From an uncultured Candidatus Saccharibacteria bacterium (GTDB lineage Bacteria > Patescibacteriota > Minisyncoccia > Phycocordibacterales > CALRHW01), in NCBI GenBank assembly GCA_964407105.1, contig CAYOUG010000004.1, positions 6,936-70,935 on the forward strand: a stretch of DNA of 64,000 bases. Direction: 5' to 3'. The translations under genes were made by a program, and so were the position numbers. Of the stretch, positions 772 through 62,480 are shown piece by piece. Position 1 is the first letter of the stretch. Each line of letters begins with the position of its first letter. The notes below the pieces were generated by a model. It saw only the letters and a program-made list of their open reading frames with translations. It did no database searches and was not told where the DNA came from.

Positions 772-843
772 TGCCACCGGCAGGAATTGAACCTGCAACT
801 ATCCCTTAGGACGGGACTGTTATATCCGTTTAACTACAGCGGC
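772..843 (-). tRNA. tRNA-Arg (anticodon CCT), no encoded CCA
   Basis: The reverse complement reads GCCGCTGTAGTTAAACGGATATAACAGTCCCGTCCTAAGGGATAGTTGCAGGTTCAATTCCTGCCGGTGGCA. It shows an acceptor stem GCCGCTG/CGGTGGC with two G-U pairs, D-stem GTTA/TAAC, anticodon stem GTCCC/GGGAT, loop GTCCTAA (U33, CCT, A37) and T-arm GCAGG-TTCAATT-CCTGC. Confidence 0.75.
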
Positions 844-7895: not shown

Positions 7896-7903
7896 TAATT
7901 TTT

Positions 7904-8248
7904 TTGTCTTGTGTCTATAAGCCGAATTCTGTATCTTTTCAGACGATGATTATTTATCTGTTCTGCTTGTTACCAAGCGAATCAAGCGGCACTCTCTGCT
8001 TTCGCAGAGCACGGCCTTGCATACACGTAAGGATTTAGCCGTTGCAATTTATGTGTTACCACACAAACTTATCCGATTACTCGGATACCGTATTCTTTCG
8101 AAATCCGGCGTCTCTGTTCGCACCTCGCAAGTTACCTTGGACGGGTGTTACCCGCTACGCTCTCCCGCGCGTCCGAAGGCGCGCGGGCTGTATGTTCGGA
8201 CTTTCCTCTATATGCTTTCGCATACAGCAATCATCCAACACAAGACCA
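7904..8248 (-). ncRNA. rnpB: RNase P RNA (bacterial type A)
   Basis: The minus-strand sequence contains the universally conserved P4 region GAGGAAAGTCCGAAC, followed by ...GCCCGCGCGCCTTCGGACGCGCGGGAG...GCGGGTAACACCCGT (cf. E. coli GGGUAACGCCUGGG). The 3' P4 strand ACAGAATTCGGCTTATAG matches E. coli ACAGAACCCGGCUUAUCG. A P1 helix pairs GTCTTGTGT (5' end) with ACACAAGAC (3' end). The region is a GC-rich island in AT-rich DNA. Confidence 0.87.
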
Positions 8249-14200: not shown

Positions 14201-15777
14201 CCTGGGGTAGCGGCATTACCAGCACCAGCAATACCTAGAGTTTGAGTAGTATTAATTCTAGCTGTACCAGCAATCCAAAATTGTGTTGAAGCATTAACTA
14301 CACCGTCAGCTCGCCAATAATCGTTGGTGTTATTAAACATGAAATAATCTGTCGCTCCAGAAATTGCAGACGCCGCAAGATTTATACCATATACCGCCGC
14401 AGCACCAAGATTTGAAATATTAAGTCCTGCAAGACCAAGTCCTCCTCCGTCTATAGTAAGTCGTGAACTAGAACCGCTTGAAGCTCCGGGTGTTGATGTA
14501 CCAATACCAATAGATCCATTAAACGAAGATGTCGCGGTAGATGTACCGACAAAAGTTTCTCCTACCACCTGTCCCGCCACAGAAAGTTTTGCATAAGGTG
14601 AGGTGGTGCCGATTCCCACACTTCCAGTAGATGTCCATATTCCAGAACCTGGGAAATAAGCAGTACCAGAAACAGAAAGTGCGGTAGTGGTTGCATTTGT
14701 TGTGGTTGAGTTATCAAAGATTGCGTTTGCAAAATATGAGGTTGATGATGCAAATATCCCAGACTGTGCCCACAGTGCTGTGGTGGTAGCTGAGGTATTT
14801 ACTCCGTAGTTTGTAAGTGGTGTGAATGGGAAAGCTCCTCCTCCACCCACAATAGCTCCACAGGCTACTACTCCTGATGCGTTGGTAGTAAGTGCGTTTG
14901 ATCCACTACAACCCGAGATACCTGAAATATTGAGTGCTGTGGTAGAAGCTGTACCTGTGACAGTGATTGCGGTAGTTGAAGCGTATGGGAAGGTGGAGGC
15001 AGTAGATGTGGTAGCGGTGAAGTATGCGGATACTGTTTGACCAACAACAGAAAGTTTTGCATAAGGTGAGGTGGTGCCGATTCCTACATTTCCTCCACTT
15101 TTTAATGTAAGTACCGATGCAGAACTTGGACCAATAAAGTTTGCAATGTCACCCGCTCCGTTTTGTGTAATCGTCAAAAATGTTGATGCAGTATTTGTAG
15201 CGTTTGTTGCATCAGCGCGCAAAAATTGCTCGCTTGAAAGACCATCTAAGGTATCTGCAACAAACGCTGCCGGCACAGCACCAAGTTTTTTTCGAGGTGT
15301 CATTTCCCCATCCCAAACCGCACCACCACCAGATCCTCCCACCTCAACCCCGAGGTAAAGCGTTTGATTGAAATCTACACTCGTCAGCGGTGTAGAGCTT
15401 CCAAGCATAACACTGAAAAGACCGTTGGTAAGGGTGATACGATCACCTGCCGCAGTACTCCTGTCTTCATCCCAAATACTCGCTCCACCTGTTGCAACAG
15501 TGTAGAGCTTAAATCTCATGTGATACGTGCCATCAGCGACAGCAACATTGCTTGAATTAGTAAGCTTTCCCTGATAATTAATTTCTTTATTAAATGCAGC
15601 GTTTGCACTTTTTGTTTGGCCTAGAAACAAAAGTTGCGGCGATAAAAGAGATACGAGTACAACAAACACAACAGCTGTTGTATATACGCGTAGAAAACGA
15701 CGTGTGCATGCAAAAGCCGTCGTGCGCATTGTGACCGCATTTCTTATATCTATGATGTTTTTAATAAGCGTACGCAT
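8284..15777 (-). CDS. Giant secreted fibre/adhesin-like protein (2497 aa). Repetitive Gly/Thr/Ser-rich tail-fibre-like beta-helical repeats, Gly-rich block, C-terminal Peptidase_S74 intramolecular chaperone domain plus acidic C-terminal extension
   Basis: N-terminal signal/TM (VVFVVLVSLLSPQLLFLGQ). At least 10 copies of G(I/V)GT(T/S)SP(Y/W/F)AKLSV(V/S)G-type repeats. Four copies of a roughly 130-aa module (SAYFTATTSTAS...CSGS...ACGAIVGGGGAFPFTPLTNYGVNTSATTTALWAQSGIFASSTS). Near the C-terminus ...FGDRNKLDSVTSLTETDLDTYLDKIKGTTISTYRYKNEDESAPLRLGIVADEAPSEIL...YKLAVFTLGGVKALQHKFDNLEMRVTALENQL matches the endosialidase-chaperone (S74) domain consensus (SDRRLKenI...l..v.Y.yk......r.GfIAqEv..v.Pe.v........y.l...i.A.kel....eeLe). 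Confidence 0.85.
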   Translation of the reverse strand: MRTLIKNIIDIRNAVTMRTTAFACTRRFLRVYTTAVVFVVLVSLLSPQLLFLGQTKSANAAFNKEINYQGKLTNSSNVAVADGTYHMRFKLYTVATGGASIWDEDRSTAAGDRITLTNGLFSVMLGSSTPLTSVDFNQTLYLGVEVGGSGGGAVWDGEMTPRKKLGAVPAAFVADTLDGLSSEQFLRADATNATNTASTFLTITQNGAGDIANFIGPSSASVLTLKSGGNVGIGTTSPYAKLSVVGQTVSAYFTATTSTASTFPYASTTAITVTGTASTTALNISGISGCSGSNALTTNASGVVACGAIVGGGGAFPFTPLTNYGVNTSATTTALWAQSGIFASSTSYFANAIFDNSTTTNATTTALSVSGTAYFPGSGIWTSTGSVGIGTTSPYAKLSVAGQVVGETFVGTSTATSSFNGSIGIGTSTPGASSGSSSRLTIDGGGLGLAGLNISNLGAAAVYGINLAASAISGATDYFMFNNTNDYWRADGVVNASTQFWIAGTARINTTQTLGIAGAGNAATPGLSFSGDTNTGVFSPSADVVGFSTGGNEYLRVTSTGNIGVSSTTPWAKLSVSSNGGTQPQFVIASSTAGVFATTTDFIVDVIGNVGVGTSSPFAKFSVKGNDQSSGISASTVFSVLGGTGGSGATAGVGGKMLLFAGTGGTGTGAGGAGGAGGAITITTGTGGAGGSGGPAGVGGDLTLTAGNGGAGSGGPDTGGAGGSVYITAGTSGANASAGANGKIVLNGGNVGVGTTSPYAKLSVVGETVSAYFTATTSTASVFPYASTTAITVSGTASTTALNISGISGCSGSSALTTNASGVVACGAIVGGGGAFPFTPLTNYGVNTSATTTALWAQSGIFASSTSQFVAANFSATSTFATGLYIGTTSAKAKLAIVGSTITGFGNNEPGLKLLTVATSSDRDVLAVYNQYVQIGSYQRFTTSNSDLNPSGLPQLLVAGDISFPGIASIATRRIFIGQSASDVAGSHLLLAAGAAGNEDVGGSTSGGNIYIRGGASSGGVPAYDGNVIIADTGGRVGVGTSTPWAKLSVSSHNSLIPQFVVASSSTGIATSTQFIVDIFGNVGVATATPSTKFAVQGAGYISSTLFVGGTITSTSSSASTFPYASTTAITVTGTASTTALNISGISGCSGSNALTTNASGVVACGAIVGGGGAFPFTPLTNYGVNTSATTTALWAQSGIFASSTSYFANAIFDNSTTTNATTTALSVSGTAYFPGSGIWNSSGFIGVGTLSPNARLEVNGDLYFTSAATNRTIGFDTAGGGRLSILGADTVTTQGGDVFIGAGSDTEAQASGGSVFIYAGQGNANGNVVLGHNSVSAFGNVGVATSTPGKLFSVHGAGYISSTLFVGGAITSTSSSASTFPYASTTAITVSGTASTTALNISGISGCSGSSALTTDSSGVVTCGAITASGGAFPFTPLTNYGVNTSATTTALWAKAGIYASSTSYLSQTIIGSGSLFPGAMLNIGSSTDGYLQANIQNSSSGSAASSDWIATNDLGSDTKYYVDLGINSSTYNQAAFSITGANDAYLYSSDSNLAIGTASTTGNANIIFHTAGTLSSNERMRITSTGLVGIGTTTPYAKLSITSVNASSQIPLFAIASSSVSNATSTYFLVNNIGNVGIGTSSPVQKLDVAGNLVAGFSNAGAGRGVLLGNIVGDTTYPGIWFGANTVAPDTNSYSFLWDAGEGTIFNTPSGKSMGFRVNNATKATLSSVGNFGIGTTSAYAKLSVVGGGTDSILPSFIVATTSDWNNGGQQPLFYVTSTTTGLLDYARVAIGTTTTWGAGGLRDQLTVAGRVYTTWRYLSCDVGGSGGGAWSSDAAGACGDFAFDLDTDGTAILTRNTYPPAIQLQAGATNPTVGDGSALRTAVFTSSATSSPIFEAWVQATRTATATTTPLYVVGLTDAAFGADTGTVPTQGAFFTATSGPNWIMVTKNRSGETFTNTNVATSTTNFLKMRIELSTTSATYLINGAVVAVHNTTIPSATLQPITLVANFAGASVTANANPSLLVSLIRFWMDDPPGSLSTPMIAQSEEVGGVASLSEDDIKNYNSVSAAAITAPYLVGDPTQFVEGSVVAFHEKDTSRVRLSNKIYDANVFGVVGMTSVQNLGETNEHTVNVAMSGRVPVLISLENGDIKPGDYLTSSSISGVAMKATASGPVIGRAIQSYDENSKLYTKTVMMKVEPTYYYGNMLVQDTFGNVGIGTTSPSFKLTVSGDVAGYGFSVFGDRNKLDSVTSLTETDLDTYLDKIKGTTISTYRYKNEDESAPLRLGIVADEAPSEILSVGGKDIDAYKLAVFTLGGVKALQHKFDNLEMRVTALENQLGVASTTATSSATSTGIVNSESLIVAIMNYLKNFGVNIAQDVAQFKNVIVETFTVGSSEKPTGITLYDEVTGEPYCLKMSNGKMLSVAGECGQNNNVEVPTSEVQPPQTQAQTGGDEISGDASADADVNPPNDSSSVDQVQPEGESAPENSSPVEPEI
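11377..11706. repeat. Intragenic DNA repeat copy 1 (most divergent) inside the giant fibre gene
   Basis: Shares tgcccacagtgctgtggtggtagctgaggtatttactccgtagtttgtaagtggtgtgaatgggaaagc... through ...gagtacttgagatgtaacccgc with the copy at 12058-12486. The antisense ORF 11468-11701 translates nearly identically to the ORFs at 12245, 13262 and 14822. Confidence 0.75.
12058..12486. repeat. Intragenic DNA repeat copy 2 (about 430 bp), near-identical to copy 4
   Basis: 12058-12426 is essentially identical to 14635-15003 (about 369 bp), and then continues like copy 1. Confidence 0.8.
13166..13436. repeat. Intragenic DNA repeat copy 3
   Basis: agactgtgcccacagtgctgtggtggtagctgaggtatttactccgtagtttgtaagtggtgtgaatgggaaagctcctcctccacccacaatagctccacaggctactactcctgatgcgttggtagtaagtgc... 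is shared with copies 2 and 4. Confidence 0.8.
14635..15003. repeat. Intragenic DNA repeat copy 4, near-identical to copy 2
   Basis: See copy 2. The identity runs from ccatattccagaacctggg... through ...gcgtatgggaaggtggaggcag. Confidence 0.8.
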
Positions 15778-15780
15778 TAA

Positions 15781-17349
15781 TTATTTTTTGAGAAGCGCTC
15801 GGACAAATTTATATCCGAGAAAAAGCAACACAAAGATAAGTATTAGAACAAGAAGAACAGGAATATTTTCTGAAACAAGAACAAACAAACCGTGAAGTGA
15901 TAAATCTGTATTTGATGCAACATTTGGCATCAAAGACACGATCACACCTGCAAGTTTTTTTAATCCTTGATTTTTGTAATCAAGAATCGTTACACCAAAC
16001 TCAAACTTTCCTGAACGACCAAGCGGTGCAATGAGTGCCTCATAAGCTGTTTTCTCTTTATTTACTCGAAGCAAAAACGAAAATGTTTTAGAGTGATCTT
16101 CTGGGTCTCGCATTGTTACCGTAATCGTCTTTAGAATTTCTGGAACTTTTTTGTAATCAAGAGAAATTGTAAGTTCTCGATCTCCTTCTATTTCAACTGA
16201 GTGAGAAGTAACAGAAAGTTTTTTACCATTTTGAAAGAAATCTAAATCAAGCACCGTGAGTCCCGCAATCATTGGATGAACTTTTGATTGAGGTAACTCT
16301 TGTATTTCTCCAAAAAGATCTTCTGAATCATGTGGCTCGCCTATTTTATAGAGTCGGCCTTTTGTAACCGCTCCAGATGAATAGTTACCAAACTCATCGC
16401 GAGCAAAAACTGTGTAGTAATAAACTTTTCCATACTCCACATCTGTGTCTACTAGAAATTCAGCATTTCCTTCATAAACCACTTTTCCATCAAACAAATC
16501 TTTTGGATAAAATTTGTCAGATCGCACTACACGTACAGATTCAAAATCCACAAGAGGATTTTTCCAAGAGAGTGTGATTTTTTTATCATCACCCACCGCT
16601 TTTAAATTTGTAACGTTACTCGGCGGATTTGTATCAGGTAATGATGTAGTTACAAATTGTTGATTGTCTATCACAAGTTTTCGTCCATATGCATCAATAA
16701 GCTCGATTCTGAAATAATATGTCGTACCCGGTGTAAGACTTTCTATACTAATAGAGTGATTTGTGAGAAAGAGCTGTTCGGCAAGAGTACCGATCTCATA
16801 ATCTGGAGTTTCTCCCCACGACACAATCGCTTGTGTGTAGATGTTTGTCTCAAAATTTATGACAGAACTTGTAACGTCTGGTTGCACCGACATGCCAAGC
16901 AATTTAAGCAACAAAGTTCCCGATATGTTTCCATCACTGGTTGTTGGTGGTGGAACTGAGGCTTCAAGTGTTGTCGCAGTAGCGGTTGCTGATGTTGGTG
17001 AATAGTTGAACGATGAATCAAATGCGGTCACTGTATAGTCGTATGTTGTTTCCGGAGAAAGACCAGTATTTGAATATGTCGTTGCGGTAGATGTTGCAAT
17101 AAACACTAGATCACGAAAGACTTGATATCCTGCAACACCATAATTATCTGTTGATGCAGTCCATGAAAGATTTATCTGCGAACTCGATACTGCAGTAGCT
17201 GTAAGATTTGTGGGAGTAGATGGGGCGACACCGTCAACGACCGTTATTGATTGCTCTACTTGAAACGTATCTTCTGCCGCTTGTATAGATAGCACCGCAC
17301 CACAAAGTGTGACGGTGAAAACCATAAAAATGTATAGAAGTTTTTTCAT
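15781..17349 (-). CDS. Cell-surface protein with fibronectin type III domains, N-terminal signal peptide and C-terminal TM anchor
   Basis: 522 aa. Signal peptide (MKKLLYIFMVFTVTLCGAVLSIQA). FN3 hallmark motifs (NLTATAVSSSQINLSWTASTDNYGVAGYQVFRD; KKITLSWKNPLVDFESVRVVRSDKFYP...YYYTVFARDEFGN). C-terminal hydrophobic anchor IPVLLVLILIFVLLFLGYKFVRALLKK. The stop lies 3 nt from the giant gene start. Confidence 0.7.
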   Translation of the reverse strand: MKKLLYIFMVFTVTLCGAVLSIQAAEDTFQVEQSITVVDGVAPSTPTNLTATAVSSSQINLSWTASTDNYGVAGYQVFRDLVFIATSTATTYSNTGLSPETTYDYTVTAFDSSFNYSPTSATATATTLEASVPPPTTSDGNISGTLLLKLLGMSVQPDVTSSVINFETNIYTQAIVSWGETPDYEIGTLAEQLFLTNHSISIESLTPGTTYYFRIELIDAYGRKLVIDNQQFVTTSLPDTNPPSNVTNLKAVGDDKKITLSWKNPLVDFESVRVVRSDKFYPKDLFDGKVVYEGNAEFLVDTDVEYGKVYYYTVFARDEFGNYSSGAVTKGRLYKIGEPHDSEDLFGEIQELPQSKVHPMIAGLTVLDLDFFQNGKKLSVTSHSVEIEGDRELTISLDYKKVPEILKTITVTMRDPEDHSKTFSFLLRVNKEKTAYEALIAPLGRSGKFEFGVTILDYKNQGLKKLAGVIVSLMPNVASNTDLSLHGLFVLVSENIPVLLVLILIFVLLFLGYKFVRALLKK

Positions 17350-27503: not shown

Positions 27504-30035
27504 TTAGTGATTTATCATTTTTTGCTTGTGTTCTTCTGTGTTTAAAAGACCACACTGTTTATATTTTTTTCCACTACCACAAGGACACTGGTCATTACGC
27601 CCAATTTTTTCTCCATTTTTATTTCTCAAAGAAATACTCGCTTCAGATTTAACGCGACTATCACCATCACCCCCACCAATAACCAAAGCTTGATCGTGTA
27701 TTTCTTTTAAATTTTCTGGTTCATTAAAATACATCTCAATGGCAATATTTGGCAAGATTTTTATAATCTCCTGTTCTATCGACATTTCCATATCTTTAAA
27801 AAGTCGAAGTCCTTCTTTTTTGTATTCTACCAATGGATCGCGTTGACCATAAGCACGCAAATTAACACTTGAACGCATATAATCCATAATTTCCAAATGA
27901 TCAATCCAAAACATATCTATTGTTTGAAGTACAACACGACGCACTACGTTTGCAAACGCATCATCGCTAAGATGTTTTGATTTTTCAATAAATAAATCCT
28001 TTTGTTTTTCATCATCAATATTTTCAGTGAGATCTTGAATATATTTTACAAGCTCATCTTTTGTACTAAAAAGCATATCTCGACGACGTTTGTAAACAAT
28101 TTTTCTCTGATGATTTAAAACGTCATCAAATTCAAGCACGTGTTTGCGTGCATCAAAATTAAAACCTTCTATTTTTGTTTGAGCTGATTCAAGTGAACGA
28201 GTAATGAGACTGTTTTGTATTGGTTCATCTTCTGGAATTCCAAAACGTCCCATCAATTTTTTTATTGTATCAGACGCAAAAATACGCATAAGTGAATCCT
28301 CAAGTGAAACAAAAAATTGTGTTTCTCCGGGATCACCCTGACGACCAGATCGCCCTCGAAGCTGATTGTCTATACGTCTAGCATCATGACGCTCGGTACC
28401 AAGAACAAAAAGACCGCCAAGTTTTTTTATCTCTTCAGACTCCTCTACTGTCGCTGGATTACCACCAAGCTTAATGTCCACTCCTCTGCCCGCCATGTTT
28501 GTAGCAATAGTTACCGCATTCTTTTTTCCAGCCTGTGAAATAATTTCTCCCTCCTTTTCGTGGTTTTTCGCATTAAGAAGCTGGTGAATAATTCCTTCCT
28601 GCGACAAATATTTTGAGAGAAGCTCGTTTTTATCAATAGATGCAGTACCTATAAGCACGGGGCGACCATTAGCATTAAGCTCTTTTACTTTTCTGGCCAC
28701 CGCCTTAAACTTTCCTTGTTCTGTTTGAAAAATAAAATCACCTCTATCTGTTCTTTGTGATGGTTTGTGTGTTGGCACAGCAATGGTCTGCAAACCATAA
28801 ACTTTATAAAACTCTTCGGCGGACGTCATAGCAGTACCGGTCATACCAGCAAGTTTTGTGTAAAGACGAAAATAATTTTGAAATGTTATAGACGCAAAAG
28901 TACGAGATTCTTTTTGAATACTTACACCCTCTTTTGCTTCTATGGCTTGATGTAAACCCTCAGACCATCGTCGTCCGGGCTGAAGTCGACCGGTAAATTC
29001 ATCGACGATCACCACCTCTCCGTCGCGTACCACATATTCTGTATCACGTACAAAAAGTGCTTTCGCACGCACGGCCGTTTCAAGATGGTGTACATATTTA
29101 ATACCTCGTTCTGTATAAATATTTTCAACTCCAAGAAGTTTTTCAGCAAAAGTAATACCTTCATCTGTAAGAGAAATGGCTCGCATTTTTTCATCCACAG
29201 TAAAATGAATATCTTTTTGCATTTTTTCTGCAATCCCAGAAAAAACAGTATATAAATTTTCAGAATTAGTTGTGGGTGAAGAAATAATAAGTGGAGTACG
29301 CGCTTCATCAATCAAAATTGAGTCAACTTCGTCGACTATTGCAAAGTTGTGCCCACGTTGTCGCAATTTTGCTGAATCATATTCAATATTGTCACGCAAA
29401 TAATCAAAACCAAATTCATTATTGGTACCATAAGTAATATCAGCTAAGTAAGCTTCTTTACGAGTTACTGGACGTAAAAATTCATATACAACCTTAAAAG
29501 AACCTTTCTCGTCACGCTCGGCATCAAGTTCTTTATGTGATGCATCATACAAAAAAGAACTTTCGTGATTGATAACACCCACGGTCAAACCAAGAAGTGA
29601 ATATATTTGTCCCATCCACGCGGCATCACGCCTTGAAAGATAATCATTAACCGTCACCACGTGCACACCCTTACTAGTAAGTGCATTCAAATATGTTGGA
29701 AGTGTTGCTACAAGTGTTTTTCCTTCACCTGTACGCATTTCTGTGCAACTACCACGATGAAGCATAATGCCTCCTATCATCTGAACGTCAAAATGGCGCT
29801 GGTTTAACGTTCTTTTTGCTGATTCACGCACCACAGCAAAAGCTTCTGGGAGAATATCTTCAAGTGTCTCTCCCTTTTCTAAACGTGCCTTAAATTCATC
29901 TGTTTTTGCTTTTAGTTGGTCGTTTGAAAGAGATAAGATACTGGCTTCAAAATCGTTAATTTGCGCCACTAAAGGAACGATTTTTTTAATCGCTTTGTCA
30001 TTTTGAGAGCCAAAAATTGTATCAACTAAAAACAT
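27504..30035 (-). CDS. secA: Preprotein translocase ATPase SecA
   Basis: 843 aa. DEAD-motor motifs (MRTGEGKTLVATLPTYLNAL; IVDEVDSILIDEARTPLIIS), preprotein cross-linking domain, helical scaffold and C-terminal zinc finger CPCGSGKKYKQCG. Confidence 0.96.
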   Translation of the reverse strand: MFLVDTIFGSQNDKAIKKIVPLVAQINDFEASILSLSNDQLKAKTDEFKARLEKGETLEDILPEAFAVVRESAKRTLNQRHFDVQMIGGIMLHRGSCTEMRTGEGKTLVATLPTYLNALTSKGVHVVTVNDYLSRRDAAWMGQIYSLLGLTVGVINHESSFLYDASHKELDAERDEKGSFKVVYEFLRPVTRKEAYLADITYGTNNEFGFDYLRDNIEYDSAKLRQRGHNFAIVDEVDSILIDEARTPLIISSPTTNSENLYTVFSGIAEKMQKDIHFTVDEKMRAISLTDEGITFAEKLLGVENIYTERGIKYVHHLETAVRAKALFVRDTEYVVRDGEVVIVDEFTGRLQPGRRWSEGLHQAIEAKEGVSIQKESRTFASITFQNYFRLYTKLAGMTGTAMTSAEEFYKVYGLQTIAVPTHKPSQRTDRGDFIFQTEQGKFKAVARKVKELNANGRPVLIGTASIDKNELLSKYLSQEGIIHQLLNAKNHEKEGEIISQAGKKNAVTIATNMAGRGVDIKLGGNPATVEESEEIKKLGGLFVLGTERHDARRIDNQLRGRSGRQGDPGETQFFVSLEDSLMRIFASDTIKKLMGRFGIPEDEPIQNSLITRSLESAQTKIEGFNFDARKHVLEFDDVLNHQRKIVYKRRRDMLFSTKDELVKYIQDLTENIDDEKQKDLFIEKSKHLSDDAFANVVRRVVLQTIDMFWIDHLEIMDYMRSSVNLRAYGQRDPLVEYKKEGLRLFKDMEMSIEQEIIKILPNIAIEMYFNEPENLKEIHDQALVIGGGDGDSRVKSEASISLRNKNGEKIGRNDQCPCGSGKKYKQCGLLNTEEHKQKMINH

Positions 30036-30352: not shown

Positions 30353-31384
30353 TTAAAAACCAAGCATTACAACTTCAGTCTCAAGATTAATGTGTGTATT
30401 TTTTTTCACACAAGCGCGCATTGATTCAGCGAGTTCTAAAATTTCCTGTGCTGTTCCATTACTAAAATTTATTAATACAAGGGGTTGGTGTTCATAAACA
30501 CCCACATTACCCGCACGATATCCTTTATATTTACATACATAATCAAGAATCCATGCAGCAGGAATTTTTTTCTTTCCATCTTGAGTATCAAAAGAAGGCA
30601 TCGTGGGAAACATACCTTTCAACATGTCATGATGATCTGTAGAAATAATTGGATTTTTAAAAAATGAACCAGCTGTACCAAATATCGAAAGATCTGGAAG
30701 TTTTGATTTACGTATAGCAAGCACAGCTTCACGTACTTCTTTGGTTGATGGATTTAATTTGTTATTTTGTGCAAAAAAATCTTTTAAATCTTTATAAGAA
30801 ATATCAGATACACCACCTAAAGAAAGAATGAAAGCGACACGTGTAATAATATATTTTTTTCCTTCATTTTGTTTAAAAATACTGTCTCTATATCCAAATT
30901 TACAATCTTGCGCTTGAAAAATTTTAAAAATCATTGATTCTGTGTCAAAAACCTCAACCCAAGAAAACATATCTTTTATTTCTTTTCCATAAGCGCCAAT
31001 ATTTTGCACAGGCGAAGCTCCCACTGTGCCAGGAATACCAGATAAATTTTCAAAACCAAATAAACCACGTTCAACACTAAGCGCTACCACATCATCCCAA
31101 CGCTCACCAGCACCCACAACAACCTCCACACACCCACCAGAAATAGTGTTCCATTCTACTCCCCTAATTTCCATTTTAAACACAGCCCCAGCAAAACCAT
31201 CGTCTGAAACAAGAATATTTGATCCTTCTCCAAGTACAAACCAAGGAAGTTTTTTTTCACAAACAAAAGTAACGGCTTCAGTAAGTTGGTCTTTAGATTG
31301 AATTGGAATAAAATACTGAGCCTTACCACCAATACGAAATGTAGTATAAAAAGAAAGAGGAACCTGTAACTGCAACGACTTCAT
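30353..31384 (-). CDS. murB: UDP-N-acetylenolpyruvoylglucosamine reductase MurB
   Basis: 343 aa. FAD-binding N-terminal motifs FRIGGKAQYF and LGEGSNILVSDDGFAGAVFKM, and the MurB C-terminal domain. Confidence 0.9.
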   Translation of the reverse strand: MKSLQLQVPLSFYTTFRIGGKAQYFIPIQSKDQLTEAVTFVCEKKLPWFVLGEGSNILVSDDGFAGAVFKMEIRGVEWNTISGGCVEVVVGAGERWDDVVALSVERGLFGFENLSGIPGTVGASPVQNIGAYGKEIKDMFSWVEVFDTESMIFKIFQAQDCKFGYRDSIFKQNEGKKYIITRVAFILSLGGVSDISYKDLKDFFAQNNKLNPSTKEVREAVLAIRKSKLPDLSIFGTAGSFFKNPIISTDHHDMLKGMFPTMPSFDTQDGKKKIPAAWILDYVCKYKGYRAGNVGVYEHQPLVLINFSNGTAQEILELAESMRACVKKNTHINLETEVVMLGF

Positions 31385-31644: not shown

Positions 31645-33843
31645 CTATGGATTTCTGCCAGCTTTTATTTCTTTGATGTAAAACTCTCCCTGCTCTTTAA
31701 ATTTTACTGGATCAAGAGCAATAAAATCTTCCAAAGTTTTTATCGCTAAGTCGCGCTGTCCCGCCTCAATGTATCCCGCCGCAAGTGACAATCTATACTG
31801 CGGATTAACCGGATTAATTTCAACACGCTTCTTAAGCATTCCGATCATTGTGTCAAATTGTTTTGTTTGTAAAAACAACATAATAGCCTGATCGTTGAAA
31901 ATTAAGGTGTTTGGATCAATGGTAGCAAATAGTTCTTTAGTAAGTGGTATATTGCCATTTTCAAACGCAGACAACGTATACAACAAACGAACCTGTACAA
32001 ATGTTGGATCTAAATCAAACGCTTCTTTCAAAATAGCGAAAGCTTCAGGAAACTTTTTTTGAATTCTGTATACTTCCGCAATTTCAATCAAAATCGATTG
32101 TTTTTTAGGGCTTAGTTTGTTTGCCTCTTTCAAATACTTAAGTGCGTCATCAAACGCACCATAACGTGATAAAAGAGAACCTAGGAAAAGAGCGTAGCGT
32201 GCATCTGGCTCTGGATTTTCATCAATCTGTTTTTTCATTTCCATACTTGCAGCCTCAAACGCTTTCATACGAATATCTTGTGGAACATCTGGTAAATTTA
32301 TACGTTGTGAAAGAAGTACGAGTTGTTCTCGAGCTTCCGCTTTTCCAAATGTGTTATAACCAATAGATCTTTTAAGTGATTCTACATTTTTAAGATAATC
32401 CTTACTACCGTTTGCCTCTGCAGCAAGACCGTCAAGAATTGCCATGTTTGCCTTCATTGGTTTAACGTTTACAAAATACAAAGTACAAAGAGTCGCTAAA
32501 CTCACAAACACAATGATGCTTTGAAAAACTACGGGCGCAACAAGTGGTTTTTGAGATATTAGAGTAGGAGCATCTGACGGTGTTCGTATAGCATAAACAT
32601 ATGCTACAAGTATCATAAAAAGAATATAACTTGTGAGATTATCGAACACAAAAAGATTTTGGAAAAAATAAGCAGAAATTAAACCAGTAAGAAGAGCTTT
32701 GTCTGTAACAGAAAACAATCCTCCACGACCACGCCAAATGTAATAAAGTAATGCGATAAAAATAGAGAGATAAGAAATAAGTCCCAATAATCCTCCAGCA
32801 ATAAGCCAATCTAGTATTACGTTGTGTGTGCGATCAAACCATTGTTCTTGACCCCACATAAGCGGATCATAATTTTTATTAAAAACATAATTAAAATTTT
32901 CCTGACCCCAACCAAGTATTGGTCTTTCTTTAAAACCCTTAATAGCCATTGGCCATATGTAATAACGTCCCTGACTTTTCAAGAAATTTTCAGACAAAGA
33001 AATTTGGGCAAAACGAAGCATGGTTGGACTTTTTTGTACAAAAGCAGTGTCTTTTATAAGAAAAAACGTAAAAATAACCACAACAATCAAACCAATACCA
33101 CCAAATGCAATTTTTCTAAAAACTTTTCTCTCTCGTTCAAAGATGGCTACAAGTATGGTAGCGATACAAAGACCACCAATAAGTCCAAGGAGCGCACCTC
33201 TTGTTTGTGTAAAATACAATAAATAAAGCTGAAGTGCGATACTTAGTCCATAAAGTATTCTTTCGTAAATTTTTCCTGAACGTGCAAGTAAAAACAGTGC
33301 AATAAATATGTGTATCATCAAATAAGCAGCAAAATATGTAGCATTACCAAGTGTTGCATCCAAACGATCAATGCTTTGATGAACCGCTGTTTTACCAAAT
33401 ATTTGTGGTAGACCATAAAACAAACACAAAATAGTATTTGCACCCAAAGCAATATTAAAAAAATAATGCCATAGTTTTTCTGTAGAAATTATCGTTCCGA
33501 GCATCAAGAAATATACGTATAGATGAAGTAGTGTTACCAAACCTTCCATGCGTTCATAGTTACTCCAAAAACTTCTATAAAAATTAACACCGAAAAAATC
33601 TGCGATTGCAATAACTACAACAAAAATACCAAAACTATAAAGTAACCATGATTTCTTGGGTCGATAAGAAACATCTATGAGTGCAAGCAGAATCCACAAA
33701 GCAAAAGCTAGCTCAATAATAATTTTAAAGACAAAACCTTTGGCAGTTATAAATGGAAAGAAAAACTGATTTAGTACTATAAACGGCACAAACAGTGTTG
33801 CACACAAACCGCACAAGATACTGATTTTAAGAACTTTGGTCAT
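31645..33843 (-). CDS. Polytopic membrane protein with O-antigen-ligase/Wzy_C-like core fused to C-terminal TPR repeats (paralog of 5345-7777)
   Basis: 732 aa. About 12 TM helices, then about 270 aa of TPR-like repeats (AEVYRIQKKFPEAFAILKEAFDLDP; AAGYIEAGQRDLAIKTLEDFIALDP). Same architecture as 5345-7777. Confidence 0.6.
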   Translation of the reverse strand: MTKVLKISILCGLCATLFVPFIVLNQFFFPFITAKGFVFKIIIELAFALWILLALIDVSYRPKKSWLLYSFGIFVVVIAIADFFGVNFYRSFWSNYERMEGLVTLLHLYVYFLMLGTIISTEKLWHYFFNIALGANTILCLFYGLPQIFGKTAVHQSIDRLDATLGNATYFAAYLMIHIFIALFLLARSGKIYERILYGLSIALQLYLLYFTQTRGALLGLIGGLCIATILVAIFERERKVFRKIAFGGIGLIVVVIFTFFLIKDTAFVQKSPTMLRFAQISLSENFLKSQGRYYIWPMAIKGFKERPILGWGQENFNYVFNKNYDPLMWGQEQWFDRTHNVILDWLIAGGLLGLISYLSIFIALLYYIWRGRGGLFSVTDKALLTGLISAYFFQNLFVFDNLTSYILFMILVAYVYAIRTPSDAPTLISQKPLVAPVVFQSIIVFVSLATLCTLYFVNVKPMKANMAILDGLAAEANGSKDYLKNVESLKRSIGYNTFGKAEAREQLVLLSQRINLPDVPQDIRMKAFEAASMEMKKQIDENPEPDARYALFLGSLLSRYGAFDDALKYLKEANKLSPKKQSILIEIAEVYRIQKKFPEAFAILKEAFDLDPTFVQVRLLYTLSAFENGNIPLTKELFATIDPNTLIFNDQAIMLFLQTKQFDTMIGMLKKRVEINPVNPQYRLSLAAGYIEAGQRDLAIKTLEDFIALDPVKFKEQGEFYIKEIKAGRNP

Positions 33844-57063: not shown

Positions 57064-58311
57064 CTATTTCTTTACCAAAAAATCATTTGCTGAATTTATT
57101 GAGGTTTTATATTCTTCAAGATAAACTGATTTTGATTGAAATGTTACTTTAGCCAAACGCAACATCGCTTCTTCAGCAAAAGTTTCTCGAAGCGCATTAT
57201 TTTCAATACAAAGTTTTATTTTTTCATATAAACAATAGTCATCTCCCACCGGACAAACAAACACGTCACCATCTGACAGAACATCACGAGCAATACCTAC
57301 GTCGGTAGCAATCGTTGGACAATGAGAAGCGAGCGCTTCAACGATAGTCATTCCATATCCCTCGTAGTTTGAGGTAACCAAAAAAAGATGTGCTGTTTTG
57401 TAGTAAGAAATAAGATCTTGTTGCCACGACTCAAACATAACATTTTTAGAAAGTCCTAAATTTTTCACTTCTTTTTTTAGTGAAAATTCTTCTCTACCGC
57501 TTCCCGCAATCACTAAACCCACACCGGGATATTGGGTGATGATACGACCGAGAGCCTTTAGTGCCAATGAAATATTTTTTTCTTTTGTAAGACGAGAAGC
57601 CACAAGCACAATAAATTTAAATTGTGGATATTTTTTCTTAAGATCAAAAGTAATTGGTGTTTGCTTTATTTTTTCAATATCAACAAAAATTGGTAAAACT
57701 TTTGGATCAACATGGATCAAATTTGTTTTTAAAAGACTTGTTTTTATTCTTTCTGAAACAACACGTACTGCATCTGCAAAAGGAAGTACTTTTTTAGCAA
57801 TACGAACACGAAACATATTAAAAAAACTTTCTTTTTTAAAAAATGGACTCAAAAAATCTGTGTGAATTTGAATGTGAAGAGCAATGTTCGTTTTTTTCTT
57901 AAGTCGCATACCAACGAGACCGCAACCAAAAGGATCCTCACAGGTCACAATAATATTATTGAGATTTTGATTTATTTTCTTATAAATATCGAAAGCTGTC
58001 TTTGTTGCATCTCTAACATACAAAAAACGTGAAAATGAATTTGTTGGATAAATCCACATATTTGGTGAAATTTTTTCTGGTTTGTATTTAGAAGATAGTT
58101 TTGTAAAAACAACAATATGCATTTCTTCAAAAAGCGCACCGTATTCCAAAATACGCGCCCGCACTACGCTTTCTTTATCAAATAAATTTCTATCTGTTCC
58201 AATACTTATGATTTTCATATGCTTATTGTATACGAGAATAGAGTGCAAGAAATTCACGAGCAATGTCTTCTGTGGTATGAACAAAAGAAAATGTTTGCGC
58301 GCGATCTGCAT
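57064..58311 (-). CDS. GT4 family glycosyltransferase (likely true start at the internal MKIISIG near 58218)
   Basis: FIVLVASRLTKEKNISLALKAL...GLVIAGSGREE...TSNYEGYGMTIVEALASHCPTIATDVGIARDVL. The tabulated 5' extension overlaps the upstream gene by 89 nt and is probably not translated. Confidence 0.8.
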   Translation of the reverse strand: MQIARKHFLLFIPQKTLLVNFLHSILVYNKHMKIISIGTDRNLFDKESVVRARILEYGALFEEMHIVVFTKLSSKYKPEKISPNMWIYPTNSFSRFLYVRDATKTAFDIYKKINQNLNNIIVTCEDPFGCGLVGMRLKKKTNIALHIQIHTDFLSPFFKKESFFNMFRVRIAKKVLPFADAVRVVSERIKTSLLKTNLIHVDPKVLPIFVDIEKIKQTPITFDLKKKYPQFKFIVLVASRLTKEKNISLALKALGRIITQYPGVGLVIAGSGREEFSLKKEVKNLGLSKNVMFESWQQDLISYYKTAHLFLVTSNYEGYGMTIVEALASHCPTIATDVGIARDVLSDGDVFVCPVGDDYCLYEKIKLCIENNALRETFAEEAMLRLAKVTFQSKSVYLEEYKTSINSANDFLVKK

Positions 58312-59257
58312 AAATTTTATAAATTTCTGGCTCGGCCATATTAAGTATTTTTTGTTCTATATCTTTTTGATCAAGCGGATCAATATAAAGTACCGTATCA
58401 TTTAAACGATCTTTGATACCGTTCTCTTTTGTCACGATACACGGTTTGCCAAAACCAATAGCTTCAAGTACAACGTTTGGACTCACATCAGAAAGCGATG
58501 GCAAAATAAAAGCATAACACTGGGCAATACGCGAATAAAGCTCTTCTTTTGAAACACCCGAAACAAGAGAAAGCTCAAGTGACGAATCTTTCTTTTGTGC
58601 CTCAGTAAACGCTTTTTTAAGACGTACTATATTTTTCAGCGTAATATCTCGCCCAGCCCAAAGATAAATCTTCTTTAGATTTTGTTCATTTTTAAAATTA
58701 CTATCAAGTGTTTTTTCATTTGATATTTTGTATTCATTTTCAATCACCACATTTTTTTCTGGATTAAGTCCATACGCTTTTGTCCAAATATCTTTTTGCC
58801 ATGATGTACTAAAAACACACACAGAAGAATTTTCAAGTGTAAAACGTGTGATAAGAAAAATTAATTTTTCTTTTAAATTAAGTTTTTTATAAAATGTTTT
58901 GTAAAAATCAGAAAGCGTCACATCTTCATGTGTACGCTCTACATATGATTCCCACAAAAAATCTCCGCCGATACGCAAAATATTTTTTTTACCAAATAGA
59001 CGCGAAGCCATCATCGATGGCCAACCCACAGAAAAAGTATCAAGTGCAATCACAAAATCAACACCAAAAAGACTAAAACACGTTCTAAGAAAAAAATAAA
59101 TATGACGAACAATCGGTGGTAATTTGCGTTCAAAACCATAAGTAAGGACCCTTACCGTATGTCCCTGTCTCCTAAACTCATTTTCAAGCCCCAGAGCATA
59201 GTAGGCCGGACCACCTATAGCTGGAGGATAAATGCCTGTACATATGAGTATCTTCAT
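58223..59257 (-). CDS. GT4-like glycosyltransferase
   Basis: 344 aa. MKILICTGIYPPAIGGPAYYALGL (GT4 N-terminal domain), ...FILPSLSDVSPNVVLEAIGFGKPCIVTKENG (C-terminal motif). Confidence 0.7.
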   Translation of the reverse strand: MKILICTGIYPPAIGGPAYYALGLENEFRRQGHTVRVLTYGFERKLPPIVRHIYFFLRTCFSLFGVDFVIALDTFSVGWPSMMASRLFGKKNILRIGGDFLWESYVERTHEDVTLSDFYKTFYKKLNLKEKLIFLITRFTLENSSVCVFSTSWQKDIWTKAYGLNPEKNVVIENEYKISNEKTLDSNFKNEQNLKKIYLWAGRDITLKNIVRLKKAFTEAQKKDSSLELSLVSGVSKEELYSRIAQCYAFILPSLSDVSPNVVLEAIGFGKPCIVTKENGIKDRLNDTVLYIDPLDQKDIEQKILNMAEPEIYKIYADRAQTFSFVHTTEDIAREFLALYSRIQ

Positions 59258-59330: not shown

Positions 59331-60533
59331 CTAAAAAGTCTTAAAGATCTGAGAATTCATAGCAGAGGCAATATCTTTCCAATCATAACGCAAAACCACC
59401 ATTTTTAATGCATTTTTTATAATATTATTTCTCAATAATTCATCATCAATGAGTTTGTTTACACACATTGCGATACTTTCAGAATCATTCACTTTACAAA
59501 ATAGACCCGTCTCTTTATCAACAAGAAAATCTGGTATTCCACCCACAGGCGTAGCAATCACAGGAATACTAGAAGCCATTGCTTCAATAAAAGAATTACC
59601 CATACCTTCAGAAAGTGATGGTCGAATAAAAATATCAGAAATTTTTAGGTATCGAGGAATATCTTTATAATCCACAAAGCCTTGAAATATCACTCTTTTT
59701 TCTACACCAAGTTCGTGTGCGAGTTTTTTAAGTTCCGACTCAAGCTCACCCACACCAAGAATTAAAAATTTTACGCGATCAGAAAGAAGTGGTAATGATT
59801 TTATTACATCAGCCAAGCCGTTTTTTATCACAAGGCGTGACGTGGTCACCAAAAATATATCATTTGTTTCCTTATGAAGATTCCAACGCAACACACCGAG
59901 TTCTTGTTCACCATAACTACGTGTGAAAAGAGATATATCAACACCGTTTGGTATCACAAAAATATCTTTTTTGTGACCCATACTTTTACCAAAATCTGCT
60001 AGGTATGAAGATATTGCTTGCACCACATCAGCTTTTTTAAAAATTTGCTTAAAAATTGGATAAAAAATACCAACCCTTCTACGAATATGACTTATTGGAT
60101 CACCTTCTTGAAGAGTGAGTATAAAAGGCACATCTGGTTTTCGCCATTTAAAAAACAAAGCAGCAAAACCAGCATACGCTGCCATAATAGACCACGTAGC
60201 ATCAAAACGATATTTTTTATGTAAACGTAGTGCCTTAAAAAAACCAAAAAAAGGAAAAAGTGTTTTATTTATTTGGTGAAGTGTTGAGGAAAAATTTGAT
60301 ACAGTTTTTTTTCTATTCCATAAACCAATCCTATGTACATGCACATTACCCACCTTTTCATATTTAAGTAAATCTTTATGTGCACGCAAAGTAACCATAT
60401 GAAATTCAATATCAGACGGACTGATACGATCGGTGATTTCTTTCACAGCTACCTCTGCGCCCCCTATGTATCGAGGATAATATACAGTTGAAAATATAAG
60501 GATTTTTTTCATGTATACGCGTATTATGCACAC
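59331..60533 (-). CDS. GT4 family glycosyltransferase (likely start at MKKILIF near 60512)
   Basis: FLILGVGELESELKKLAHELGVEKRVIFQGFVDYKDIPRYLKISDIFIRPSLSEGMGNSFIEAMASSIPVIATPVGGIPDFL. Confidence 0.8.
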   Translation of the reverse strand: MCIIRVYMKKILIFSTVYYPRYIGGAEVAVKEITDRISPSDIEFHMVTLRAHKDLLKYEKVGNVHVHRIGLWNRKKTVSNFSSTLHQINKTLFPFFGFFKALRLHKKYRFDATWSIMAAYAGFAALFFKWRKPDVPFILTLQEGDPISHIRRRVGIFYPIFKQIFKKADVVQAISSYLADFGKSMGHKKDIFVIPNGVDISLFTRSYGEQELGVLRWNLHKETNDIFLVTTSRLVIKNGLADVIKSLPLLSDRVKFLILGVGELESELKKLAHELGVEKRVIFQGFVDYKDIPRYLKISDIFIRPSLSEGMGNSFIEAMASSIPVIATPVGGIPDFLVDKETGLFCKVNDSESIAMCVNKLIDDELLRNNIIKNALKMVVLRYDWKDIASAMNSQIFKTF

Positions 60534-60575: not shown

Positions 60576-62459
60576 TTATTTAGAAACGTCAAGAATTTTA
60601 CGCAAAACATCCTCAGGAACTTCTTTTGGATCTTGTGGTGTGTTTTTGTGTGTAAAATTTTGTTGCGCAGGATTGTTTGGTTTTTCAGAAATAGGGTTTG
60701 TCTTTTGAGTAACAGCTGCGAGTGCTTCTTTTAAACTAGCCACATTTTCTTTTGTGGGCGCTTTTGGATCTGGTGCATCTTTTGATGTTTTTTGTCGAAG
60801 TGTTTGAAGTGATACCGTTTCTGGTGGCTTTTCTTCTTTTACGTGCAATTTTCCGTCAGAACCAACCGCAATTTCTTCAAATGGATTTTTTTGTGACACA
60901 TTAAATTCTGGCACATTAACATCTGGCGATTTTTCTCTAGAAAAAATAGCGGATGGGTGTTCGTGGGATTTTTCTGATGGTGATTTTCCAAAATGTGGGT
61001 GTTTTTCTTGAGGTGTTTGAGGTGTGTGTGGAGCTTGTGATGTTTGTGGCGCAGAAAATTGCTTATCGTGTCTTTGTCCACCATCGTTTTGCGGTCTTTC
61101 ATTTTGTGGCCTTTTCTGCCCACCATGACCACCTCCGCTATTTCCAGAACCAGGAGTCACAACAGGCTTATGCCACTCAACAATATCGTGCTCCACATCC
61201 TGTCTTGGACGAGCAAACATCTTCCTTGAATTTTCAATTATTTCGTCTCTATACATCACCTCAGGTTTTTTTATAGGCGGAAGAGTTGTCGCAGAAAAGG
61301 GTGGTGAGGTTACACCGTCAATCATGAGCTTTAAATAAATCTGCACAAAACCAAGATTTACCAAGTCTTCTGCGGTAAATGTAGGCATGAATTCTTTTTC
61401 AAGAACCTCAGCATCATACGCACCAACACGAAAAGCGACCATTGTTCCAACGTTACCAAAAACAGCAGCACGCACCTCCTCGGACATTTGTTCTATATAT
61501 TGATGCGCAACAGTAAGATTAAGTTTGTATTTTCGCGCCTCAGAAAGAATGTCAGCAAAAGATTCATTGGCAAAATTTTGAAACTCATCAACAAAAAGAT
61601 AAAATTGTGGCAATCCGTTTAATACTGTTTCATTTACGTCAGCGCGAGACATTGCACCAAGATAAATTTTGGTAATAAGCATACTTCCAAGAAGATTGGC
61701 GTTTGCCTCGCCCACTCTACCTTTTGAAAGATTGATAATCATAATCTTTCGCTCATCCATTAATTTACGAATATCAAAGGTAGATTTTGGCTGACCAATA
61801 ATATTACGTACAAGAGGATTGGCTACAAACTGACCAATTTTATTTTGAATAGCTGCACCCGCCTCCTGCATATATCTCTCACCATATTTTTCAAATTCAT
61901 CTACCCAAAAAGATTTTACAGAAGGATCAGAAATATTTGCTACCACTTTTTTGCGATAATCTTTGTCTGCAAGCATTCTGTTGACACCTATGAGTGTGGA
62001 GTCTGGATATTCCAAAAGAGCCAGAAGAATATTATTTAAAATATATTCCATACGAGCAGACCACGCGTCTACCCAAATCTTTTTAAACGCACTCATGAGA
62101 CCGTTGGCAACCAAATGTCTTTTGTCCACCCCCACGTCTTCCATCACATTAAATGAAATTGGATAATCTGTATCAAAAGGAGCAAAATAAACAATATCTT
62201 TTATTCTTTCTTTTGGAACATATTCTAGAAGAAGATCAGCCGTTTTTCCGTGTGGATCGATAAAAGCCATACCTTCACCATTTTGAATATCCTGCACAGC
62301 AAGATTTTCAAGCAGGGTTGATTTTCCCATGCCTGTTTTTCCGATGATATAAACATGACGAGAGCGATCTTTAGATTTTATGCCAAACGGCACCCGCTGA
62401 TTGCGCGCGTCAGTCTGAGCAAAATATGAAACAGTATTAGGATTCATATAGTGTTTCAA
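60576..62459 (-). CDS. Soluble VirD4/TraG/TraD-like (type IV coupling protein family, AAA-like/DUF87) P-loop NTPase with about 200-aa disordered Pro/Gln/Lys-rich C-terminal tail
   Basis: 627 aa. Walker A IIGKTGMGKSTLLENL followed by FIDPHG. Walker B-like LFVDEFQNF. LNLTVAHQYIEQMSEEVRAAVFGNVGTMVAFRVGAYDAEVL resembles the TraG-D_C region (Q.isQL...yG......il.n..t.i.lr..D.eta). No TM helices. The C-terminal 200 aa are low-complexity (GGGHGGQKRPQNERPQNDGGQ...). Confidence 0.6.
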   Translation of the reverse strand: MKHYMNPNTVSYFAQTDARNQRVPFGIKSKDRSRHVYIIGKTGMGKSTLLENLAVQDIQNGEGMAFIDPHGKTADLLLEYVPKERIKDIVYFAPFDTDYPISFNVMEDVGVDKRHLVANGLMSAFKKIWVDAWSARMEYILNNILLALLEYPDSTLIGVNRMLADKDYRKKVVANISDPSVKSFWVDEFEKYGERYMQEAGAAIQNKIGQFVANPLVRNIIGQPKSTFDIRKLMDERKIMIINLSKGRVGEANANLLGSMLITKIYLGAMSRADVNETVLNGLPQFYLFVDEFQNFANESFADILSEARKYKLNLTVAHQYIEQMSEEVRAAVFGNVGTMVAFRVGAYDAEVLEKEFMPTFTAEDLVNLGFVQIYLKLMIDGVTSPPFSATTLPPIKKPEVMYRDEIIENSRKMFARPRQDVEHDIVEWHKPVVTPGSGNSGGGHGGQKRPQNERPQNDGGQRHDKQFSAPQTSQAPHTPQTPQEKHPHFGKSPSEKSHEHPSAIFSREKSPDVNVPEFNVSQKNPFEEIAVGSDGKLHVKEEKPPETVSLQTLRQKTSKDAPDPKAPTKENVASLKEALAAVTQKTNPISEKPNNPAQQNFTHKNTPQDPKEVPEDVLRKILDVSK

Positions 62460-62480
62460 TCATTATACCACACGAATTAT

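Follow-up and report, generated by a model that had tools for sequence, protein, structure and literature searches.

Type IV coupling proteins (T4CPs) such as TrwB of plasmid R388, VirD4 and TraG have two classical features, a transmembrane domain and linkage to relaxase and type IV secretion system (T4SS) genes. T4CPs that lack the transmembrane domain, for instance TraJ of pIP501, are an established subtype, and TraJ is believed to depend on a membrane protein that another gene encodes (PMC7434980). C-terminal tails that differ between T4CPs and recruit partner proteins are established as well, as in the pairs TraD-TraM and DotL-IcmSW (PMC7434980). For the Patescibacteria, Quinonero-Coronel et al. 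2025 (PMC12102498) count 5,713 VirD4-like homologues in 2,918 of 3,035 genomes, only 148 of them near virB4, and VirB4 itself in 2,417 of 3,035; exaptation of the homologues to another function was not ruled out there by the authors. A T4SS cluster without a recognisable coupling protein has been described in Southlakia (Wang et al., PMC10633639), and because of this cluster and the counts in PMC12102498 an orphan T4CP in a genome of the candidate phyla radiation is already on record. Here, we report on a T4CP-like ATPase encoded in a 64,000-nucleotide stretch of DNA (the window) from contig CAYOUG010000004.1 of an uncultured Candidatus Saccharibacteria bacterium (assembly GCA_964407105.1). 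The ATPase gene belongs to the chromosomal core of the Patescibacteria, where it is inherited vertically, and is not part of a conjugative element; ancestrally the family has DUF8128 as a membrane partner, which in sister clades is encoded next to the ATPase or fused to it.

A predicted soluble ATPase of the T4CP lineage

An earlier note on this DNA had drawn attention to an open reading frame (ORF) at 60576..62459 on the minus strand and to the motifs GKTGMGKST and FIDPHG within it. ORF and motifs are all present, and it is the start that has been refined (Table 1). Counted from its TTG the ORF encodes 627 aa; the true start is most likely the ATG at 62447, giving 623 aa, because a 100% identical NCBI protein has 623 aa and all aligned homologues begin at that methionine, with MNPN or MD.N as N-terminus.

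Four Pfam profiles matched the ATPase, all modestly above their gathering cut-offs: DUF87 with the top single Pfam score (35.2 bits, cut-off 23.2), TrwB_AAD_bind spanning residues 29-345 (29.3 bits, cut-off 20.5), T4SS-DNA_transf (26.5 bits, cut-off 20.1) and TraG-D_C, PF12696 (25.7 bits, cut-off 22). FtsK_SpoIIIE reached 11.6 bits against a cut-off of 24, on the P-loop only and with no match to a gamma domain. The NCBIfam T4CP equivalogs stayed below cut-off (SXT_TraD 49 against 366, conj_TOL_TraD 36 against 648, conju_CD1115 34 against 250 bits), as did the VirB4 profile TIGR00929 (19 against 643 bits), the protein being without the VirB4 N-terminal domain. Among the PADLOC defence models mad8 scored 46 bits and the HerA models 16-36 bits, and the strongest profile match in any library was phrog_5156, with 207 bits over residues 13-424.

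An AlphaFold model of the ATPase was built on a diverse alignment of 35 sequences with 37-59% identity to the window protein, in which the catalytic motifs are invariant. Residues 1 to about 435 are predicted with a local distance difference test score (pLDDT) above 90 and form in the model a RecA-like nucleotide-binding domain into which an all-alpha domain is inserted; for the latter, seven helices, likewise at pLDDT >90, are predicted between Walker A and Walker B within residues 107-217. When the model was compared with the PDB by Foldseek, the first 32 matches were TrwB chains, with E-values down to 4e-13 over about 420 columns and a TM-score of 0.60-0.64 normalised to TrwB. HerA (4d2i, E 1.5e-11), Cagbeta, DotL and DndH came after TrwB in the ranking, and VirB4 chains were not among the top 50 matches. 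The family sequence profile run against the PDB also placed TrwB (6.5e-7) and DotL (6e-5) first. Since fold comparison and sequence profile both rank TrwB first, the assignment as a T4CP-type nucleoside triphosphatase, made from profiles and a predicted structure, is sound. The earlier note had arrived at the same classification, and the Pfam comparison it proposed gave T4SS-DNA_transf, TraG-D_C and DUF87 rather than FtsK, HerA or unrelated AAA families only.

The likeness to TrwB, VirD4 and TraG comprises the RecA-like domain, the two Walker motifs, a FIDPHG motif in the position of VIVDPNG and the predicted all-alpha insertion, but identity to TrwB is only about 14%. DUF87 as the highest Pfam score and HerA as the second-best fold recall the HerA/DUF87 ATPases. 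However, TrwB outranks HerA structurally, and both the helical insertion and the TraG-D_C segment have T4CP character. The ATPase is flanked by DUF4015 and a GT4 glycosyltransferase, without NurA or any other partner gene of HerA close by, and no nuclease was found in related loci.

No transmembrane helix is predicted in the ATPase, because no 19-residue window exceeds a Kyte-Doolittle mean of 1.28, and only about 35 residues precede Walker A. The lack of an N-terminal membrane anchor, which the earlier note had pointed out, is thus borne out and sets the protein apart from TrwB, VirD4 and TraG. Both classical T4CP features are missing, the transmembrane domain as well as the linkage to relaxase or T4SS genes, and the ATPase fits the recognised subtype of T4CPs lacking the transmembrane domain. 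Judged by its motifs and hydropathy, it would be a catalytically intact and soluble member of the T4CP lineage.

A predicted disordered tail with two conserved motifs

The part of the protein that follows the core had been described as a disordered tail rich in proline, glutamine and lysine. Composition and predicted disorder agree with this description: the tail contains 12.7% P, 11.2% K, 8.6% S, 8.1% Q and 8.1% E, its hydrophobic residues amount to 15% against 38% in the core, its net charge is about +2, and the model predicts it to be disordered, with pLDDT <50 apart from two short helices. It is not featureless, however. Among the 119 closest homologues tail length runs from 90 to 312 aa (median 178), and in 22 close homologues the tail is free to vary in both length and sequence with the exception of two blocks, which are also the only two tail helices with raised model confidence.

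The internal block, with the consensus ISLxxL...KGPTxENLSxLKxALA, corresponds to residues 545-580 of the window protein (VSLQTL...KAPTKENVASLKEALAAVT). K562, L572 and L576 of this block do not vary in the alignment of close homologues, the pLDDT has a local peak of about 74, and the strict pattern is met with in 87 of the 119 close homologues. The second block, PKEVPEDVLRKIL, lies at residues 607-623, where the window protein reads PKEVPEDVLRKILDVSK, and includes EVPEDVLRKIL. E609 and L615 are invariant in the close-homologue alignment, the pLDDT is about 80, and the motif, present in 105 of 119, is essentially limited to the window's clade. ATPases of sister clades that are encoded separately from DUF8128 (split forms) end in LKPGQxIKFD or in an LKEAL helix, which makes the EVPE...L terminus specific to the window's clade. 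A variable, partly acidic C-terminal region with a short conserved segment is what the tail shares with those of TraD (binding TraM) and DotL (binding IcmSW), but the ENLxxLKxAL helix and the EVPEDVLRKIL terminus are unrelated to them in sequence, and the window ATPase has no relaxosome or effector-adaptor genes beside it.

Size and distribution of the family

A word-indexed search returned at least 8000 significant homologues of the ATPase, and an exhaustive search of representatives at 50% identity found 6138 at E<=1e-30. The best 120 homologues share 60-92% identity with the window protein and all scored >800 bits, and those of them that carry an organism name are without exception from the Patescibacteria, Parcubacteria or Paceibacterota. 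A genome scan was made with one genome per species; the best 80 loci were taken, and essentially all of these are titled as metagenome-assembled genomes of the Patescibacteria group. At NCBI the family is named 'type IV secretion system DNA-binding domain-containing protein'. ORFs were called and proteins clustered in 84 related loci plus the window, and 46 of these loci make up the window's clade. By full-length similarity and by the order DUF4015-ATPase-glycosyltransferase, which recurs in four database contigs (L001-L004) and in most of the 46 loci, the window protein fits a chromosomal T4CP-like family of the Patescibacteria.

This family is very probably the same population as the VirD4-like homologues of Quinonero-Coronel et al. 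2025, an identity of the two sets that we infer (PMC12102498). Compared with TrwB, VirD4 and TraG, the family is extremely conserved within its phylum and is not distributed in a plasmid-like manner, and the window ATPase stands in a chromosomal housekeeping context without relaxase, VirB4 or oriT-type neighbours. The term orphan, by which the earlier note had referred to the ATPase, has to be given up, as the protein is one of a very large family of the Patescibacteria that is inherited vertically and keeps its synteny with envelope genes. The window gene is an ordinary representative of that family.

A DUF8128 partner in sister lineages

Loci of sister lineages, including Nealson-, Uhr-, Magasanik-, Buchanan-, Moran-, Yanofsky- and Niyogibacteria, have another, equally conserved gene order: SecA-SecD-SecF, a protein combining sigma-70 region 4 with HARE-HTH, a protein of about 440 aa, the ATPase, and then PGK, MnmA and AlaRS, with DHH and RNase H also among the ATPase neighbours. 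The ~440-aa protein is DUF8128 according to precomputed Pfam annotation. It has one or two N-terminal transmembrane helices and is homologous to the N-terminal extension of 350-460 aa in the fused ATPases of 850-1100 aa found among the representatives. Among 33 sister-clade loci, a hidden Markov model of DUF8128 matched the gene directly preceding the ATPase in 30 (L056:8657-9997, L085:6001-7341 and 28 others). It gave no match in the window or in the 46 loci of its clade, and a search of a literature library turned up no mention of DUF8128. The 14 best Foldseek matches of a DUF8128 model in the PDB were all TrwK/VirB4, but at an E-value of 1e-4 and a TM-score of 0.3.

When the ATPase domains were placed in a neighbour-joining tree with phage sequences as the root, without bootstrap, the fused forms stood at the base and the split forms next, with the window's clade derived and monophyletic. 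This succession from fused to split to the window's clade is indicative. A T4SS ancestry of the two-part DUF8128-ATPase module would fit the phrog_5156 match and a gene pair of phage G, in which gp156 (L087 1196-5338) joins a DUF8128-like domain (E 7e-21) to a window-type ATPase and the adjoining gp155 is an ATPase resembling the VirB4 C-terminal domain (E 5e-13 to 4ag5). SPO1-like Bacillus phages also carry 25%-identical homologues of the phrog_5156 group, for example CP-51 (L086 2753-5488). The phage proteins share 25-29% identity with the window ATPase over about 90% of its core, but they are fused and longer, with a DUF8128-like N-terminal half in gp156.

The soluble ATPase and, in sister clades, its adjacent DUF8128 partner recall TraJ and TraI of pIP501. 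TraJ and TraI sit in a plasmid tra operon, however, whereas the window ATPase is chromosomal, and in contrast to TraI the DUF8128 protein is not small, has a VirB4-N-terminal-like fold in the model and is absent from the window's clade.

The protein between SecF and DUF8128, always in this position, has about 330-385 aa and unites an N-terminal sigma-70 region 4 with an RNA-polymerase-delta-like HARE-HTH domain near its C-terminus (L056:7678-8652, L067:7405-8559 and 23 other loci). A role as relaxosome-like DNA-binding partner was considered for it and set aside, because the two domains suggest an association with RNA polymerase. On contig L074 (UBA2196) a fused DUF8128-ATPase (132-2702, 856 aa) is found 6 kb away from a split pair (8546-11900), and paralogous copies therefore coexist in one genome. 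Locus L072 (2409-4883, 9998-11911) has the ATPase without adjacent DUF8128, 5 kb downstream of ftsA-ftsZ and after nrdR-nrdD-nrdG, and upstream of a gene for a penicillin-binding protein (PBP)/L,D-transpeptidase and of ftsE-ftsX.

Surroundings of this kind bear on the possibility that the ATPase is a housekeeping DNA translocase independent of any T4SS, a soluble hexameric pump for chromosomal or incoming DNA that would be recruited through its tail to the divisome or membrane. SftA of Bacillus subtilis, soluble and FtsK-like, would be an analogue. T4CPs, FtsK and HerA belong to one superfamily of mostly DNA pumps, in which the window ATPase has its closest structural counterparts, TrwB and HerA; the family occurs almost throughout the phylum and shows strong conservation; and wall and division genes lie close by, MurC, MurD, MurB and PBP in the window's clade and FtsA-FtsZ and FtsE-FtsX in L072. 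A disordered linker ending in a terminal peptide also loosely recalls the layout of FtsZ, which in L072 ends DDDLSVPAFIRKKMN. We nevertheless regard such a translocase as unlikely. A DNA-recognition domain like FtsK gamma is lacking, the FtsK_SpoIIIE match being to the P-loop alone, and at least one Patescibacterium (TM7x) carries an annotated ftsK. The synteny may merely mirror the conserved gene order of small genomes, and a homologue in Southlakia, a candidate orthologue, is reported as non-essential in PMC12102498. EVPEDVLRKIL was also considered as a mimic of the FtsZ C-terminal peptide, and this resemblance was judged weak because its hydrophobic spacing differs from that of the FtsZ terminus in L072.

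Gene neighbourhood in the window

The window chromosome carries LepA, MurJ, RNase P RNA, GatB, SecA, MurB, a transketolase and a long glycan island, and RNase P RNA and tRNAs confirm the chromosomal context. SecA aside, a canonical Walker A occurs in three window ORFs only, those of the focal ATPase, LepA and a small GTPase. There are 51 ORFs of at least 120 aa, of which 30 besides the ATPase were scanned, and no match to VirB4, relaxase, pilus or other T4SS families was found among these 30, about 20 ORFs of the glycan island not having been scanned individually. Within this scope the earlier note's view of a non-conjugative context stands. Relaxase and VirB4 were likewise not seen in the family neighbourhoods, as covered by precomputed Pfam annotation of five loci and by Pfam searches with representatives of the recurrent neighbour clusters of 84 loci. 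The same note had thought of an accessory role for a pilus or DNA-uptake machinery or for transfer directed at a host, and for none of these do the gene neighbourhoods hold anything specific.

The order MurD-MurC-(RsmI)-DUF4015-ATPase-GT4...methyltransferase-Wzy_C/TPR-MurB is shared by the four contigs L001-L004. Within the window's clade DUF4015 is found at most four genes upstream of the ATPase in 28 of 46 loci (39 of which show at least two upstream genes), and glycosyltransferases at most five genes downstream in 34 of 46 (with two or more downstream genes visible in 45). About 27 kb lie between the ATPase and Wzy_C-MurB in the window, whereas in L002 and L004 this interval holds glycosyltransferase genes and measures only about 5 kb. 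The glycan island thus has the appearance of an expansion particular to its lineage, set within a conserved backbone of which the ATPase is a fixed member.

This backbone raises the question of whether the ATPase could power the export or assembly of a surface product of the flanking genes (DUF4015, GT4, LTD/PKD, Wzy_C). In addition to the neighbour counts, the gene that directly follows the ATPase encodes an LTD/PKD surface protein in 12 loci, such a protein comes after the ATPase in Niyogibacteria loci that still have DUF8128 as well, and the sister-clade module comes after SecA-SecD-SecF. A motor of this sort is improbable, however: we know of no ATPase of the T4CP/HerA type that powers the export of glycans, DUF4015 and glycosyltransferases are linked to the ATPase in one clade only while sister clades have PGK, MnmA, AlaRS, DHH and RNase H as neighbours, and the intergenic sequences suggest separate promoters.

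Far less credible still is an origin of the gene as the remnant of an integrated conjugative element or as a HerA/MADS-like defence ATPase, to which the T4CP domains in Pfam and the PADLOC scores for mad8 and HerA would point. The window scans showed no gene near the ATPase for an integrase, relaxase, nuclease or DNA methyltransferase as a partner, the G+C content of the gene is similar to that of its neighbours, the same gene order recurs in dozens of species, the family is near-universal in the phylum and all catalytic motifs are intact. Both readings were rejected on synteny and distribution.

An extended -10-like element, TGgTATAAT, falls in the 33-nt gap behind the DUF4015 stop codon. It was not called in a consensus promoter scan because it has no -35, and in that promoter and terminator scan the number of sites was no higher than in shuffled controls. 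The sequence suggests that the ATPase gene may have its own promoter and a very short leader, with a nearly leaderless mRNA.

As to the remaining genes, the GT4 next to the ATPase probably starts at ATG 60512. Two further GT4 ORFs, 57064..58311 (-) and 58223..59257 (-), overlap by 89 nt as mechanically called, and the downstream one probably starts at a later methionine (MKIISIG...). The glycan island also carries transketolase and aldehyde dehydrogenase genes. An ORF of 2497 aa at 8284..15777 (-), rich in G, T, S and A (13/13/12/11%) and with one N-terminal hydrophobic segment, had no Pfam or NCBIfam match and is probably a giant secreted surface protein; a fibronectin-type-III protein at 15781..17349 (-) adjoins it.

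Table 1. Coordinates of the ATPase gene, its parts and other features of the window
Feature	Position	Strand	Remarks
T4CP-like ATPase, coding sequence	60576..62447	-	623 aa; stop TAA at 60576-60578; mechanical start TTG 62459
TGgTATAAT, extended -10-like	62462..62470	-	14 nt upstream of ATG; read from sequence
ATPase core, residues 1-435, RecA-like nucleotide-binding domain and inserted all-alpha domain	61143..62447	-	pLDDT >90, Foldseek
Walker A GKTGMGKST, residues 36-44	62316..62342	-	G36, G39, G41 and K42 invariant in the 35-sequence alignment
FIDPHG motif, residues 62-67	62247..62264	-	aligned with VIVDPNG of TrwB
Predicted all-alpha domain, helices within residues 107-217	61797..62129	-	secondary structure of the model
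Walker B FYLFVDEF, residues 282-289 (D287, E288)	61581..61604	-	aligned with LWLFIDEL of TrwB
TraG-D_C-like segment	61422..61604	-	Pfam PF12696
C-terminal tail, residues 436-623 (~190 aa)	60579..61142	-	P/K/S/Q/E-rich; pLDDT <50
Internal tail motif, residues 545-580	60708..60815	-	predicted helix 566-580
C-terminal peptide, residues 607-623	60579..60629	-	predicted amphipathic helix 612-619
DUF4015 putative glycoside hydrolase with N-terminal signal/transmembrane segment	62481..63692	-	Pfam PF13200, 298 bits; upstream neighbour
First GT4 glycosyltransferase of the glycan island	59331..60533	-	downstream neighbour
Wzy_C/TPR	31645..33843	-	~27 kb downstream of ATPase
MurB	30353..31384	-	~27 kb downstream of ATPase
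SecA	27504..30035	-	~27 kb downstream of ATPase
RNase P RNA, bacterial class A	7902..8246	-	108.5 bits
tRNA-Phe(GAA)	245..320	-	ordinary housekeeping RNA
tRNA-Arg(CCT)	771..843	-	ordinary housekeeping RNA

Discussion

The explanation that we favour, with a probability of roughly 45%, is that the ATPase is a soluble motor recruited through its tail to a membrane machine, likeliest a Patescibacteria-type VirB4 T4SS, and that it does not serve classical conjugation. The ancestral form of the family would have been a two-part machine consisting of the ATPase and a DUF8128 membrane protein with an N-terminal transmembrane hairpin and a fold like the VirB4 N-terminal domain, the ATPase being either fused to DUF8128 or encoded directly downstream of it. 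In the window's clade the ATPase would have come to stand alone, moved beside DUF4015 in the peptidoglycan and glycan backbone, and gained its clade-specific C-terminal peptide. By analogy with TrwB it may assemble as a hexameric ring, which the long flexible tail would tether while the two conserved helical motifs dock onto a partner, in the manner of the TraD tail on TraM and the DotL tail on IcmSW. The ring could then use ATP to hand over or drive DNA or protein at the membrane machine. The likeliest such machine would be the VirB4 apparatus encoded elsewhere in the genome, in a cluster of its own without a gene for a coupling protein.

Several observations weigh against this explanation. 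T4SS genes were found neither among the 30 ORFs scanned in the 64-kb window nor in the 46 loci of its clade. The neighbours of the ATPase are housekeeping envelope genes, and its conservation is far above that expected of plasmid T4CPs; this high conservation and these neighbours fit a role independent of a T4SS equally well, and the evidence overall fits such a housekeeping role almost as well. The VirB4-likeness of DUF8128 comes from Foldseek matches of a model at E 1e-4 and TM 0.3, and a profile search of the PDB lent it no support. The hexamer, the docking of the tail, the substrate and any link to a T4SS are proposed by analogy with known systems. Finally, T4CP homologues occur in 96% of genomes and VirB4 in 80%, and the Southlakia t4cp homologue, a candidate orthologue, is reported as non-essential and the T4SS as essential, both according to PMC12102498.

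A bolder reading would make the family a hitherto uncharacterised core machine of the Patescibacteria that acts outside T4SS and conjugation, is made up of a DUF8128 membrane module resembling VirB3 and the VirB4 N-terminal domain and of a T4CP-like motor, and carries out an essential-like housekeeping translocation of DNA, protein or glycoprotein at the envelope. The motor of the window's clade would in that case have gone a step further, being free-standing and recruited by its short tail peptides alone. We consider this somewhat unlikely, and retain recruitment to a VirB4 T4SS as the preferred explanation.

The missing anchor, the tail motifs, DUF8128 in its fused, split or absent state and the synteny with envelope genes are not found described in the accessible part of PMC12102498. 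The DUF8128 partner, the clade-specific tail peptides and the envelope backbone raise the interest of the family and not that of the window locus as such.

The Patescibacteria account for a large share of bacterial diversity, and their interaction with hosts is poorly understood. In the one genetically tractable Patescibacterium the T4SS is essential and its cluster is without a coupling protein (PMC10633639), and a T4CP-like ATPase is present at unrelated loci in about 96% of genomes, as counted in PMC12102498. Whether this ATPase serves the T4SS or has been exapted to housekeeping is a question whose answer would make it clearer which substrates the T4SS of Patescibacteria moves. With the conserved tail peptides, the DUF8128 partner of sister clades, the loss of adjacency between the two genes in the window's clade and the synteny with wall and glycan genes, the role of the ATPase becomes experimentally approachable.

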